DNA of 59,208 nt from contig JAZROL010000019.1 in assembly GCA_045648665.1 (NCBI GenBank), forward strand, positions 1-59,208, read 5' to 3'. The number at the start of each line of letters is the position of its first letter. The first letter of the stretch is position 1. Source of the DNA: Candidatus Enterousia sp. (GTDB lineage: Bacteria; Pseudomonadota; Alphaproteobacteria; Rs-D84). The translations under genes and the position numbers were made by a program. Below, piece after piece: positions 7,077-59,157 of this stretch. A model generated the notes under the pieces. That model was not told where the DNA came from and did no database searches. It saw only the letters and a program-made list of their open reading frames with translations.

Positions 7077-7844
7077 TTATGGTATCGCTGGGCCGGCAAT
7101 AAAATCACCAGTACCTGCATTATAAAAGTATTGATTGGAAACTTTATCATACATACATGGTGTGCCATTATTATCAAGCACAGGTATAAAATCACGAACA
7201 AGAGTGTTAGTTGAATTCCAAATTTTTACATAATAATTTCGTTGCGCAAAACACTTGTTGCTATAATCACTATAACCTATTTTTACAGACACATTTTGTG
7301 TTGGTAATATATTTGTATTGTTCCTGTCCATGTATATTTCATTATTTATTTTCACTACAAATTTTGTATTTGATGTATTAAGGTAAAGATCAAAAGGTGT
7401 ATCGTCTGTAATTAGTATATTTGCAACATTAGTAATGCTCCCTTTCTCTGCATATAAACGCGAATCAGTAGAATAAAACTCGTTCCTTGAGTTATTAGGA
7501 TTTGCCTTTGAAATACTACCTAATTGAAGAATATATTTACCATCTTTCATTTTTGGTGCCATACGAGCTTCTATTATACAACCACCATTTGCATAAAAAC
7601 CTGTATCAATATATTGTGTCCCTGTGAATTCTAAATATTCAATTGGAGTATAATCTACGGCCCAACCAATAAAATCATATCCCAATTTCGTTGGTGTGGG
7701 GGGTAAAATTAAATCGCCCCCTATTGTACAGGTTGTTGTTTGATTTGTTGTGCCGTCTTCATTTAACCAAGTCAAAGTTATATCTTCCGCTATGGCGGTT
7801 GTGCCGATAAACACAGCAAATAAAAACAATATTATTCGTTTCAT
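7077..7844 (-). CDS. Secreted protein with N-terminal InlB B-repeat-like domain and C-terminal beta-sandwich (LamG/ConA-like) domain
   Basis: ATG at 7844 after GGAGG. Signal peptide, TTTCTIGGDLILPPTPTKLGYDFIGW, then YTPIEYLEFTGTQYIDTG...LVRDFIPV...MYDKVS.QYFYNAGTGDF. Confidence 0.75.
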   Translation of the reverse strand: MKRIILFLFAVFIGTTAIAEDITLTWLNEDGTTNQTTTCTIGGDLILPPTPTKLGYDFIGWAVDYTPIEYLEFTGTQYIDTGFYANGGCIIEARMAPKMKDGKYILQLGSISKANPNNSRNEFYSTDSRLYAEKGSITNVANILITDDTPFDLYLNTSNTKFVVKINNEIYMDRNNTNILPTQNVSVKIGYSDYSNKCFAQRNYYVKIWNSTNTLVRDFIPVLDNNGTPCMYDKVSNQYFYNAGTGDFIAGPAIP

Positions 7845-7860
7845 TTTTTCCTCCACAGTA

Positions 7861-8060
7861 AAAAACAATAAAACCGCGCTTAAAAGGCGGCTGGAGGTTA
7901 GCTACAATTCAAAGAGAAATTGTGTGCATATTCAATGTATTTTGCAACCCTCCAACCCAAAAAATAGTTGGAGTTACCATTTCGTCCCTTACAGAACGCT
8001 CTTTGATTAGGGTAGCTATACCCCGCCAGAAAAAATCTTTCTGGCAAAATTATTTTATCA
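7861..8060 (-). ncRNA. Structured leader RNA, C4/CI-antisense-like attenuator (copy 1)
   Basis: Extended -10 TGATAAAAT (8052-8060), 5' hairpin (8025-8045), target boxes (8013-8018, 7999-8006) complementary to a three-way junction (7889-7957), terminator-like stem plus U tract (7861-7892). Same layout as 58265-58490. Confidence 0.7.
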
Positions 8061-8159
8061 AACATTAAATATGAATAAAAGCGAAAAATAACGCTATTTT
8101 ATATTTGCACGAAAATCTTTTTATGCTATGATTTCGCAAAGGAAAATATAGGATTAAAT

Positions 8160-9056
8160 ATGTACGATGTTGTTATTTTGGGTTCGGGGCCTGCTGGGTT
8201 AACTGCTGCTATATATACTGGTCGCGCAAACAAATCAACTGTTGTTTTGGCCGGCGAATCTCTTGGTGGTCAAACCGGTGAAATTGCAAAATTGGAAAAT
8301 TATCCGGGCTGGGCCGGCTCTGGGATGGAATTAATTCAATTTATGACAAAACAAGCAAAATCTTTCGGTACTAAAATTGAATTTACATCCGCAACAAATA
8401 TCAAGTTTAATGATGATGAAACTTTTTCTGTCGTTTGCGACAACGGCAAAACATTTGATGCAAAAACAGTGATATTGGCAACCGGCGCACGCGCACGTCG
8501 TCTTGACATAGCGGGCGCACGTGAATTTTTCGGTCACGGTGTTTCATATTGCGCGACCTGTGATGGATTCTTTTATTCTGGTCGCGATGTATTGGTATAT
8601 GGCGGTGGCAATGCCGCATTAAATGATGCACTGTATTTGGCAGACGTCGCAAAAACTGTAAAGATAGTTTATCGCAAAGCTGAATTTTTTAGAGCGGAAG
8701 CTGTCTTACGCGACCGTATTGCAGAAAAGTCAAACATAGAATGCATATATAATACAGAATTAAAATCTATTGCGCAAAAACCAGACAGTGATAAATTAAT
8801 CGCAACAACCACAACTGGCAAAGAAATTGAATGTGATGGTATCTTTGTTGCAATTGGTCACGAAGCGAACACAGATTATTTAGCGGAATCTATTAAACGC
8901 GACGATATGGGTCGTATTGCACCTGAATCCTTGCCAAAGGGGATGTTCGTTGCTGGTGATGTAAAATCAAATATAAAAATGCAAATAGCAACCGCAGTTG
9001 GAACGGGTTGCACTGCCGGTATGGATGCAATCGCTTATTTGAATTCAAAAGAATAA
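8160..9056 (+). CDS. trxB: Thioredoxin reductase
   Basis: GSGPAGLTAAIY, ENYPG, GVSYCATCDG, GGGNAA motifs. Confidence 0.93.
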   Translation: MYDVVILGSGPAGLTAAIYTGRANKSTVVLAGESLGGQTGEIAKLENYPGWAGSGMELIQFMTKQAKSFGTKIEFTSATNIKFNDDETFSVVCDNGKTFDAKTVILATGARARRLDIAGAREFFGHGVSYCATCDGFFYSGRDVLVYGGGNAALNDALYLADVAKTVKIVYRKAEFFRAEAVLRDRIAEKSNIECIYNTELKSIAQKPDSDKLIATTTTGKEIECDGIFVAIGHEANTDYLAESIKRDDMGRIAPESLPKGMFVAGDVKSNIKMQIATAVGTGCTAGMDAIAYLNSKE

Positions 9057-40296: not shown

Positions 40297-40371
40297 GCGA
40301 GCATAGTTCAAAGGCTAGAATGCAAGCCTTCCAAGCTTGAAATGAGGGTTCGATTCCCTCTGCTCGCACCA
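40297..40371 (+). tRNA. tRNA-Gly(TCC)
   Basis: Acceptor GCGAGCA/TGCTCGC, anticodon arm CAAGC-CTTCCAA-GCTTG, T arm GAGGG-TTCGATT-CCCTC, encoded CCA. Confidence 0.97.
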
Positions 40372-40510: not shown

Positions 40511-40597
40511 GGGCGTGCGCCGGAGTTGGAGAGCCGGGGCAGACTGTAAATCTGTTGTCTTAAGACTGAGGTGGTTCGAATCCACCCACTCCCACCA
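40511..40597 (+). tRNA. tRNA-Tyr(GTA)
   Basis: Anticodon arm GCAGA-CTGTAAA-TCTGT, long variable arm, GGTGG-TTCGAAT-CCACC, ACCA end. Confidence 0.95.
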
Positions 40598-48026: not shown

Positions 48027-48407
48027 ATGAGAATGAAATATTTATTTTTAATTTTGGGTTTAACTGCCTGTGCTTCTGCTAATCGTGGGTCGATTGATGA
48101 TGCGACTATATTGAATTGGGAAAATGATGCTGTGACAACGGAACAATTTGTTCGCGACCACAAATCTTGTTTGGGTATAAAAGATAAAAACTATATGCCA
48201 AAATCCAGAATTGCAAAATTATTATCGCCAAATCAAAGCGCACAAATGCCTGATTGGGACGGTTTATGGGTGACTTTTCAGTCTAATGAATACAAAGACG
48301 TAGGTCAACGTGCGTTATTGTCCGTACCACCAAACAAAGCATCCAAAACGGTTGGATATTATCGTAAATGCATGTTGCGTCGCGGATATTTATTACGTGC
48401 AAAATAA
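48027..48407 (+). CDS. Hypothetical lipoprotein
   Basis: Lipobox LTAC, F.RDH.SC, C-terminal Y..CM..RGY. Confidence 0.72.
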   Translation: MRMKYLFLILGLTACASANRGSIDDATILNWENDAVTTEQFVRDHKSCLGIKDKNYMPKSRIAKLLSPNQSAQMPDWDGLWVTFQSNEYKDVGQRALLSVPPNKASKTVGYYRKCMLRRGYLLRAK

Positions 48408-58168: not shown

Positions 58169-58264
58169 TTTAAACCCTTTTGTTTTGATTATTTGTATAT
58201 CCAAAATTATAAAAACCTTTCACCCGTGTATCAAGAATTTTATTATGGAATTTTAACGTAAAAC

Positions 58265-58490
58265 TGATAAAATGATTTATGAAATCCAAAGGGATTTGGA
58301 CTTCGGGGCTTTGCTAGCCCAGTTTATCCGATGCGAAAGCATTGTTATCTGATGTTATCAGTGTCTTTCTGCACCGCTATCATCCCTGACCTATCAGGTT
58401 GGGGGGCCGTTTGCCGTAAGGGACGGAATCATTGATAAACTGATTAGCAACTCCCCGACCGCCAATTTCTTGACGGTTTTTGTTTTATCT
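58265..58490 (+). ncRNA. Structured leader RNA, C4/CI-antisense-like attenuator (copy 2)
   Basis: TGATAAAAT (58265-58273), 5' hairpin (58281-58304), target boxes TTGCTA (58311-58316) and CAGTTTATC (58320-58328) complementary to a three-way junction (58397-58460), terminator-like stem plus U tract (58458-58487). Confidence 0.72.
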
Positions 58491-58530
58491 TGGAACAAAG
58501 AAAAACAAATTTTGATAACAAGGGGCAAAG

Positions 58531-59157
58531 ATGCTGAAAAAAATATTTTTTATTTTTGTATGTTTATTTACAAACACAGTTTTTGCATCGTGTCCAACTG
58601 GTTATACCACACCAACACATAACATAGATTTGGATTATAATATATCAACCACATTGCCTGAATTAATCGAACCAACACAACAAACACCAAATAATGATAT
58701 ATTTGTCTTGTCAGAAATGGACGGAACGTGTACAAGTGGCTATGAACCATATGTTATAAACGACAATATATCACTCTTTGCAATCGAAACCCCAACATTA
58801 TGTCCCGAAGGGCAATACCTTAACACAAATGGCACATGTACAAACTACGCAACGTGTTCCGGCAACTATAAAAAATACAATTATGCGAATAATACCGTCA
58901 TAGAACAAAACGAAAACGATGAATGTGACAGTGGTTATGAACTATACACAGATTTAACACGTTGTGATGCTTCAACAGATTATCAATGCGTTGATTTACC
59001 GACCATAATAAACCTGAATTGGTATGACCGGGATACGATAATAGCAACGAACACATGCAGATACGGACAACCAATAACATTACCACCGGAACCAACACGT
59101 CCTGGGTATATATTTTCCGGTTGGCGATTACGTACAGAACAAAACAGCGGAGAATAA
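58531..59157 (+). CDS. Secreted Cys-rich protein with C-terminal InlB B-repeat-like domain
   Basis: Signal peptide, repeated C.(T/S)GY motifs, INLNWYDRDT...CRYGQPITLPPEPTRPGYIFSGW. Confidence 0.78.
   Translation: MLKKIFFIFVCLFTNTVFASCPTGYTTPTHNIDLDYNISTTLPELIEPTQQTPNNDIFVLSEMDGTCTSGYEPYVINDNISLFAIETPTLCPEGQYLNTNGTCTNYATCSGNYKKYNYANNTVIEQNENDECDSGYELYTDLTRCDASTDYQCVDLPTIINLNWYDRDTIIATNTCRYGQPITLPPEPTRPGYIFSGWRLRTEQNSGE

Follow-up and report, generated by a model that had tools for sequence, protein, structure and literature searches.

What does an RNA leader with the anatomy of a phage immunity system do in front of bacterial surface-protein genes? The question is raised by the 59,208-nt contig JAZROL010000019.1 of Candidatus Enterousia sp. 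(assembly GCA_045648665.1), which was analysed over its whole length and is called the window here. On its minus strand, at 8060–7861, an initial annotation had described a leader whose elements follow the order known from the C4 RNA of phages P1 and P7 and the CI RNA of phage P4. All the elements it listed were indeed present when we read the sequence. We favor the interpretation, to which we assign a probability of roughly 55%, that the leader is a locus-specific self-antisense transcription attenuator, that is, a C4/CI-type switch targeting itself. For each gene, it probably decides whether transcription reads through or is cut short.

Anatomy and conservation of the leader

The leader carries two short target boxes, b and a, followed by a three-way junction with their complements, b' and a', and a terminator-like stem. 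Its features are listed below in the order of the transcript; MFE stands for minimum free energy, and R1 is a covariance model of the part from X to the terminator.

8060–8052, minus strand: extended -10 element TGATAAAAT, read from the sequence, with a predicted transcription start at about 8045
8045–8025, minus strand: hairpin H1 at the 5' end of the transcript, GCCAGAAA...UUUCUGGC, from sequence, MFE fold and covariation
8024–8009, minus strand: hairpin Hb, abutting H1, with a GGGG/CCC stem and target box b in its loop
8018–8013, minus strand: box b, UAGCUA, in the Hb loop, complementary to b'
8006–7999, minus strand: box a, UCAAAGAG, a single-stranded target 3 nt past Hb, complementary to the arm-2 loop
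7998–7983, minus strand: hairpin H3, CGUUCU-GUAA-GGGACG, with a GUAA tetraloop, from sequence and fold
7973–7967, minus strand: X, CUCCAAC, upstream copy of the closing strand, which pairs with X' and keeps the junction open in the predicted fold
7957–7889, minus strand: three-way junction ("cloverleaf") domain, 100.1 bits with R1
7957–7949, minus strand: closing strand X', GGUUGGAGG, which forms the closing stem with X2
7946–7925, minus strand: arm 1, with an AU-rich conserved loop, read from the sequence
7922–7905, minus strand: arm 2, with a' in its loop
7916–7909, minus strand: a', CUCUUUGA, in the arm-2 loop, antisense to box a
7904–7898, minus strand: junction strand of 7 nt, carrying b' (UAGCUA, 7904–7899)
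7897–7889, minus strand: X2, CCUCCAGCC, which forms the closing stem with X'
7892–7872, minus strand: intrinsic-terminator-like stem AGCCGC/GCGGUU, with a U tract to about 7861
7854–7850, minus strand: Shine-Dalgarno sequence GGAGG, with the ATG at 7844

The 5' strand of the terminator shares 3–4 nt with X2, and the distance from the terminator tail to the ATG is only about 20 nt. Because the upstream gene (from 8160, plus strand) is divergent, TGATAAAAT is the only plausible promoter. This orientation, together with the short distance between terminator and ATG, makes the gene depend on transcription through the leader. The motif TTTGATAAAAT is kept at the same place in the paralogs, with T1, T6, A7, A10 and T11 invariant in our alignment A1. 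H3 differs between copies in both sequence and length.

The host genome (1.0 Mb, 36.7% G+C, 94.7% complete) contains 16 full-length paralogs of about 70% identity, found by iterated nhmmer, only one of which lies inside the window. R1 also gave weaker matches there, which represent a second class (class II) with the same architecture and other conserved letters than the first (class I). A broader model, R2, found 40 matches at E ≤ 1.2e-5, which corresponds to a leader roughly every 25 kb. A strict pattern scan that covered a single genome for each species yielded at least 117 loci, and the first 100 of these supplied the 102 model matches (leaders or junction domains) that are used in the counts below.

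The 201-nt leader has an MFE of -63.8 kcal/mol, as compared with -46.3 ± 4.1 kcal/mol for 200 dinucleotide shuffles (z = -4.23, with no shuffle as good). Our main covariation test used a sequence-only MAFFT alignment of 53 full leaders that was not fitted to the structure. In this alignment 93.0% of the cells were paired versus 77.1% in shuffles, and none of 500 shuffles reached the observed value. Changes on both sides were found in seven of the eight pairs of H1 (96.0% of cells paired), in all six pairs of b:b' (96.9%) and in all seven pairs of the a:a' core (73.9%), while the inner Hb stem was paired in 95.6% of cells. At the arm-2 pair 166:186, 32 sequences had AU and 21 had UA. When 76 leaders were aligned with an HMM, the values were 89.1% for b:b' (64.4% in shuffles) and 76.0% for a:a' (55.2%). 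Among 102 junction domains in a model-fitted alignment, 94.9% of cells were paired versus 80.2% in shuffles, and 16 of 22 pairs changed on both sides. The complementarity between boxes and antiboxes described in the initial annotation is therefore kept across related leaders, and the leader is a real, strongly conserved folded RNA rather than a chance arrangement.

The strand X' deserves separate mention. In class II and in two remote genomes, the letters of X, X' and X2 are all different, and both pairings are still complementary (for example CACCUUUCAGU / GACUGGAAGGUG / CUUCCAGUC and CUACCUUUUUGCC / GGCAGGAAGGUAG / CUUCCUGCC). In 13 of 101 sequences, both sides have changed at the closing pair between G9 of X' and C1 of X2, a pair that X cannot make. 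Judged by sequence complementarity, both partners of X' are supported, X as well as X2, and X' has two mutually exclusive conserved pairings.

A locus-specific code and the proposed switch

The a and b boxes appear to form a code that is specific to each locus. In alignment-free comparisons of predicted duplex energies, the upstream modules of the 16 paralogs bound their own a'b' regions with a mean of -18.3 kcal/mol versus -9.4 kcal/mol (sd 3.1) for non-self combinations, and self was the best partner in 16 of 16 cases, with one tie. For 25 further leaders of the host genome, self ranked first in 16 and among the top three in 22; one of the exceptions is a truncated half copy. The same tendency was seen in 93 leaders from other genomes (self mean -19.5, non-self -13.2 kcal/mol), where self was in the top 4 of 93 for 46 leaders. 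Both boxes could be located in 97 of the 102 leaders, with the loop box upstream in 87 of these 97 and a gap of 5–6 nt in 53. Since each of the approximately 40 loci of the host genome has its own a/b code, control would be exerted per locus.

We found no target site of the a2/b2 type downstream of the leaders: in 16 copies, the a'b' region paired with the 220 nt downstream at a self mean of -15.0 versus -14.6 kcal/mol (sd 2.7) for non-self. A genome-wide search for b-N(3–9)-a with at most one substitution per box returned 4–376 short matches per leader, which were dominated by chance, and established no target in trans. Among the matches listed (at most six per leader; no search for exact sites only was made), exact b–a sites were confined to the own leader and, for C2_5175, C14_1070 and C10_26422, the opposite strand of the own a'b' region.

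In all 15 class I copies that could be parsed, the MFE fold combines X:X', a:a' and b:b' with a complete terminator, and the same fold is predicted for two remote homologs. The proposal of the initial annotation that CUCCAAC can sequester the closing strand agrees with this result, as the X:X' hairpin is part of the MFE fold in each of the 15. In this fold the G-run of Hb pairs with CCUCC of X2. The self-pairing helix thus extends into GGGG:CCUCC and takes up the 5' half of X2, which physically couples target pairing to an open junction and an intact terminator. When the 3' domain from X to the terminator was folded in isolation, the two states differed by only -0.1 to +5.8 kcal/mol (mean +2.9), and closing the junction typically left the terminator with 5 pairs instead of 8. 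The two alternative folds expected from the initial annotation are therefore nearly equal in energy in the isolated domain, a balance that is lost in the full leader (see below).

We propose the following mechanism. The self-paired fold would terminate transcription about 20 nt before the start codon, so that the gene is OFF by default. Pairing of X' with X2 would close the junction and cost the terminator three G-C-rich pairs, and transcription would continue into the surface-protein gene (ON). The closed junction begins with GGU and has RC(C/U) after it, so that RNase P, by analogy with P1 and P4, could excise it. The released locus-specific small RNA would, by the same analogy, bind to a and b on transcripts newly made from its own locus and shift the balance between the two folds. 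The switch may also work purely in cis, and an effect in trans could go in either direction.

The 5' end of C4 RNA is said to be generated by RNase P at GG(W), with an RCC-like motif after the closing stem. In our set the closing stem begins with GGU in 101 of 102 sequences, a figure biased by the search pattern, and RC follows it in 98 of 102. The host genome contains a gene for RNase P RNA (175.8 bits) and encodes Rho; Hfq was not found in this 94.7%-complete assembly.

Several results weigh against the attenuator. A consensus scanner called neither the promoter nor the terminator of the leader. Its rules demand a -35 element for a promoter and limit terminator loops to 8 nt, and the terminator was missed because its loop has 9 nt. 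Promoter and terminator, like any processing, are predictions. Within class I, the strands X, X' and X2, the X:X' pairing and the terminator stem hardly vary at all and show no covariation. The variation of a and b among loci is also expected from neutral compensatory drift and is no proof of selected specificity. In the full leader, forced closure of the junction costs +5.9 to +18.5 kcal/mol over the 15 parsed copies. In the isolated 3' domain, the junction state still leaves the terminator with 0–7 pairs, so that anti-termination may be partial. When a and b were masked in silico, the prediction switched to the junction fold for just 3 of the 15 copies, and thus no trigger for the ON state was identified. 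Finally, a full RCC follows the closing stem in only 59 of 102 sequences (GCC in 55, ACC in 4), and GCU is found in 31.

Four other explanations have to be considered. The junction RNA might act in trans as a repressor, as in P4 immunity: once processed, it would pair with b and a on its own nascent transcripts and cause termination or decay, a negative feedback for which the cis pairing in the predicted fold would be a mere property of the unprocessed precursor. P4 has this architecture, with its CI RNA (74.9 bits) and a c4-a1b1/isrK-like module in one leader, and excerpts of PMC4825925 describe premature termination upon pairing of CI with seqA and seqC. Fast bimolecular antisense recognition typically uses targets displayed in a hairpin loop and in a junction strand, RNase P RNA is encoded in the host genome, and Acinetobacter baumannii has many processed C4-like small RNAs (sRNAs) with variable a' loops, to go by portions of PMC5320573. 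However, the terminator follows the junction instead of lying between targets and junction as in P1 and P4, the cis fold already has the full terminator in 15 of 15 copies, so that an RNA acting in trans is not needed for termination, and no second downstream target was found. We regard repression in trans as possible but rather improbable. The helices could also belong to a constitutive 5' untranslated region that stabilizes or processes the mRNA, for example by protection from 5' decay, with a leaky, unregulated terminator and no switch at all. H1, arm 1, a:a' and b:b' do change in a compensatory manner like ordinary structural stems, there is no identified trigger for switching, and regulators are few in reduced genomes (as with Hfq, not found in this host). 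But a static structure explains neither why the mutually exclusive X:X' and X':X2 pairings change together in class II and the remote homologs, nor why the arm-2 stem covaries (AU 32, UA 21) although it is opened in the MFE fold, nor the near-equal energies of the 3'-domain folds. We consider it unlikely.

A riboswitch-like or protein-binding element, in which a ligand or protein stabilizes the three-way junction against the terminator, would account for the layout, which resembles terminator/anti-terminator riboswitches, and for the strong conservation of the AU-rich arm-1 loop (about 15 nt) within class I. This loop is, however, not conserved across class I, class II and the remote homologs, and the parts where a pocket would be expected, the junction strand and the arm-2 loop, are the most variable and covary with the upstream boxes. 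No Rfam riboswitch matched the leader or the class II copy, and this explanation seems very unlikely to us. The high copy number, and the fact that many of the downstream genes are Flg_new paralogs (see below), could suggest a dispersed repeat without RNA function, for example a miniature mobile element, or a promoter cassette that was duplicated together with the genes of a family. Against this, the element has a constant orientation immediately 5' of a gene and also precedes unrelated genes (a trypsin-like protease, a lipoprotein and a Cys-rich protein, and HTH-type proteins in other genomes). We saw no terminal repeats, and copies that are only about 70% identical have kept every helix by compensatory change, which makes a functionless repeat extremely improbable.

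We also looked for leader-peptide attenuation and rejected it: by eye, the AUGs near H3 open frames of varied length and phase, with no conserved small open reading frame (ORF).

If the self-antisense attenuator is confirmed, an antisense module of the phage-immunity type has been taken over as a general cis-regulator of a surface-protein repertoire, with about 40 copies in a 1-Mb genome that has no detectable Hfq. The RNA family, undescribed and with no match in Rfam 15, belongs to a lineage of uncultured, genome-reduced gut Alphaproteobacteria. With dozens of orthogonal sequence codes that occur naturally on a common scaffold, it also makes the rules of C4-type RNA-RNA recognition and of terminator/anti-terminator switching directly testable. 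A more far-reaching idea, which we offer as speculation with little chance of being correct, is that the roughly 40 leaders are RNA-only, individually addressed bistable switches, in which the excised junction RNA of a locus would bind the a/b code on later transcripts from there, block their self-pairing OFF fold and thereby favor read-through and further production of junction RNA. The surface-protein genes would then switch ON and OFF one by one and heritably, with no rearrangement of the DNA, and a phage-immunity RNA domesticated by a gut symbiont with a reduced genome would drive antigenic or adhesin variation.

Downstream genes, variants and distribution

The genes around the leader, and a second leader near the other end of the window, are as follows.

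7844 (ATG) to 7077 (stop), minus strand: gene for a protein of 255 aa with a signal-peptide-like N-terminus and a Flg_new domain (PF09479, 27.7 bits, cut-off 27)
7067–6576, minus strand: second gene of the same transcription unit, 163 aa, Flg_new domain (PF09479, 33.5 bits)
from 8160, plus strand: divergent upstream gene, thioredoxin-reductase-like
58281–58482, plus strand: class II leader with divergent letters and the same architecture, sequence read and folded (R1 24.1 bits, R2 49.9 bits)
58531–59154, plus strand: gene 3' of the class II leader, with a Flg_new domain (Pfam, 28.9 bits)

Flg_new, the Listeria-Bacteroides repeat domain, is thus found in both genes downstream of the leader. The initial annotation had called the downstream products secreted; the signal-peptide-like N-terminus encoded by the first gene agrees with this, and both genes share the domain. 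It had also noted the lack of phage genes nearby, and the remaining neighbors are in fact housekeeping genes or the like (SerRS, a DnaJ-domain protein, a Xer-type recombinase, LptF/G, MutL and BipA). At gathering score, Rfam matched nothing in the window except two tRNA genes (40297–40368 and 40511–40594, plus strand).

The association with exported proteins extends to other copies. Of 28 host-genome leaders checked, 22 have a downstream ORF under our selection rule, and 18 of these 22 encode N-termini that look like signal peptides or lipoprotein signals by eye. Pfam detected Flg_new in 9 of 14 downstream proteins at E ≤ 0.01, four of them at or above the cut-off; other products in the host genome are a trypsin-like protease and a Cys-rich protein (both by Pfam) as well as a lipoprotein. 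In other genomes, an ORF starts within 400 nt downstream of 76 of the 102 leaders, and 42 of these 76 pass a crude signal-peptide rule. A few leaders there precede HTH-type or helicase-like genes.

The class II leader is probably the second copy mentioned in the initial annotation. Its box b, UUGCUA, pairs with b' UAGCAA, and its box a, AGUUUAUC, with a' GAUAAACU; X is CCCUGAC, X' GGUUGGGG and X2 CUCCCCGACC. R1 finds about 12 class II copies in the host genome, and R2 finds more. Other variations on the architecture were also seen. An orphan junction domain (61 bits; L024 1701–1806, minus strand, corresponding to G000:C11:10100-10205) lies directly in front of a full leader's promoter; X and a target module are both missing from it, and its a' loop is one base off that of its neighbor. 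In some genomes (loci L108, L110, L125, L047 and L074) an extra hairpin is inserted into the arm-1 loop, which shows that arm 1 tolerates expansion. Seven loci contain a conserved G+C-rich hairpin of about 45 nt with the core GGUGUGCGAAGCACAGCCGGGAC between terminator and Shine-Dalgarno sequence (G000 contigs C6, C9, C13, C14, C17 and C23, for example L004 at about 1709–1760); the window copy does not have it. A repeat starting with CCCCUCUGGCUAGAGGGG is found at about 10–90 of the window (plus strand), at the ends of contigs C10, C18 and C29 and inside C6, in three cases directly 3' of class II terminators. This repeat probably breaks the assembly.

Most of the loci from the pattern scan belong to metagenome-assembled genomes (MAGs) of gut and rumen Alphaproteobacteria, many of them labelled Candidatus Enterousia. 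R1 matched 95 of 121 searched genomes of the order (Candidatus Enterousia / Rs-D84 Alphaproteobacteria) and, within the genus, 80 of 81; these genomes of about 0.9 Mb each carry from 1 to at least 31 matches. In a class-wide sample, only 4 of 151 genomes had matches: the host genome, one congener and two others of about 1.1–1.2 Mb. Pattern hits in Ramlibacter, Doudnabacteria, Verrucomicrobiales, Mycobacterium, Chloroflexaceae and Anaerolinea, and likewise in Haloferula, Dehalococcoidia, Pirellulales, Halopseudomonas and Planctomycetota, had no model match and were taken as chance. Two records labelled Bacteroidota did match the leader model, a Muribaculaceae MAG (L026, 68.2 bits) and a Bacteroides fragilis bin (L062, 55.8 bits); mis-binned contigs or transfer could explain them.

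In excerpts of PMC12306168, Enterousia and the order Rs-D84 are characterized as gut bacteria that have not been cultured and whose reduced genomes encode many hypothetical membrane proteins. None of the Enterousia papers listed, judged by title, deals with RNA. Literature searches returned nothing on this leader family or on C4 in Alphaproteobacteria; supplements were not covered, and Additional File 1 of Weinberg et al. 2010 may add to the distribution of C4. In the sections of that paper used here (PMC2864571), C4 is placed in Proteobacteria and phages and c4-a1b1 in gamma-Proteobacteria and phages.

Comparison with C4, CI and related RNAs

The initial annotation had suggested a cmscan comparison with the Rfam C4 and c4-a1b1 models, and the outcome was negative. 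The C4 model (RF01695, gathering score 45 bits) had no match in the window at gathering score, none at 7600–8300 or 58200–58700 at E ≤ 10, none on ten paralog loci at E ≤ 1 and none in the whole genome at E ≤ 10; the positive controls P1 and P4 scored 68.8 and 74.9 bits. The c4-a1b1 model (RF03163, 46.7 bits) did not match the leader either, its three matches in the whole genome having E values of 1.2 or worse and none of them lying at a leader. Apart from obvious noise, no Rfam 15 family matched positions 7600–8300 at E ≤ 10, and none matched the class II copy. The attempt to reach canonical C4 from our own models also failed, with P1 C4 scoring -0.3 bits (R1) and 2.4 bits (R2). The layouts themselves are present: the three-way junction of C4 (closing stem, arm 1, arm 2 with an antisense loop, 7-nt antisense strand) is found with covariation in 102 loci, and that of c4-a1b1 in H1 abutting Hb with b in the loop and a single-stranded a 3 nt later. 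The leader is of the C4/CI kind in its anatomy, and it is not a demonstrated member of the Rfam C4 families.

Only one Rfam family weakly matched a paralog, sRNA-Xcc1 (RF02221), whose hit covers the closing stem, arm 2 and the junction strand. Its score of 31.7 bits is far below the gathering score of 53, and only one of ten paralog loci was matched, not the window copy. C4-like sRNAs are also known from A. baumannii. In the passages of PMC5320573 considered here, many such sRNAs with variable a' loops are described, and read coverage suggests processing at GGW. As far as these passages go, Group 1 shares with the leaders the many chromosomal copies in one genome and the variable a' loops, but its members match Rfam C4 and stand alone, without a target module and terminator of their own locus in front of surface-protein genes.

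The IsrK/STnc1160 leader of the Salmonella prophage Gifsy-1 resembles the proposed switch in its output. According to extracts from PMC4825925, it has short terminated and read-through forms, a processed downstream RNA is complementary to it, and two folds set expression; these three traits, namely both transcript forms, a complementary downstream RNA and a choice of folds, parallel those proposed for the leader. IsrK differs in its prophage locus, in the translational activation of a small ORF and in having no similarity to the leader in cmscan. The isrK model also matches the P1 and P4 leaders.

In P4, the CI RNA belongs to Rfam C4 and is preceded by a c4-a1b1/isrK-like module in one untranslated leader; the Enterousia leader likewise has its target module upstream of the junction. 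Pairing of CI with seqA and seqC leads to premature transcription termination in the excerpts of PMC4825925, the same kind of output as we infer for the Enterousia leader. P4 differs in that its terminator-like hairpin separates the target module from CI, that a further target, seqC, lies downstream, that phage replication genes are controlled, and that there is a single copy.

Extensive agreement is found with C4 and the a1/b1 targets of P1 and P7 (RF01695 and RF03163, clan CL00128). Both systems consist of a promoter, hairpin 1, hairpin 2 with a loop target and a single-stranded target. The three-way junction comes later in the same transcript: the loop of its arm 2 is complementary to the single-stranded target, and the 7 nt that link arm 2 to the closing stem are complementary to the loop target. 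GG opens the closing stem, and R-C-C/U comes after it. In the Rfam alignment, P1 and P4 C4 share a 12-nt antisense loop in arm 2, the 7-nt antisense strand, the closing stem and ACC, so that the C4/CI-like anatomy claimed for the leader can be followed element by element in both phages. The second, single-stranded target is annotated as such in the P1 record, and its P4 equivalent was read from the isrK alignment. The order of targets claimed for P1 agrees in geometry, with the loop target first and the single-stranded one second, and not in letters, because the P1 record names a1 before b1. Two further observations were made by eye in the P1 leader (record L143). A terminator hairpin of the isrK type (48285–48310), AACCGC...GCGGU, resembles the terminator of the Enterousia leader, and ACGCCC just 5' of C4 (48320–48360) can pair with GGGCGU of the closing strand. 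This ACGCCC may be a counterpart of X.

The differences from the phage RNAs are equally specific. The closing stem of the leader has 9 pairs, whereas that of P1/P7 C4 has 17, and arm 1 ends in a large conserved loop rather than a tetraloop. The decoy strand X and the terminator overlapping the closing stem are features of the leader with no counterpart in the Rfam C4 and c4-a1b1 models; this terminator directly follows the junction, while in P1 and P4 it comes before. P1 has annotated a2 and b2 sites, and the Enterousia leader has none at the ribosome-binding site. Finally, P1 and P7 use the module at icd/ant, whereas in Enterousia it stands in front of chromosomal surface-protein genes, in tens of copies per genome.

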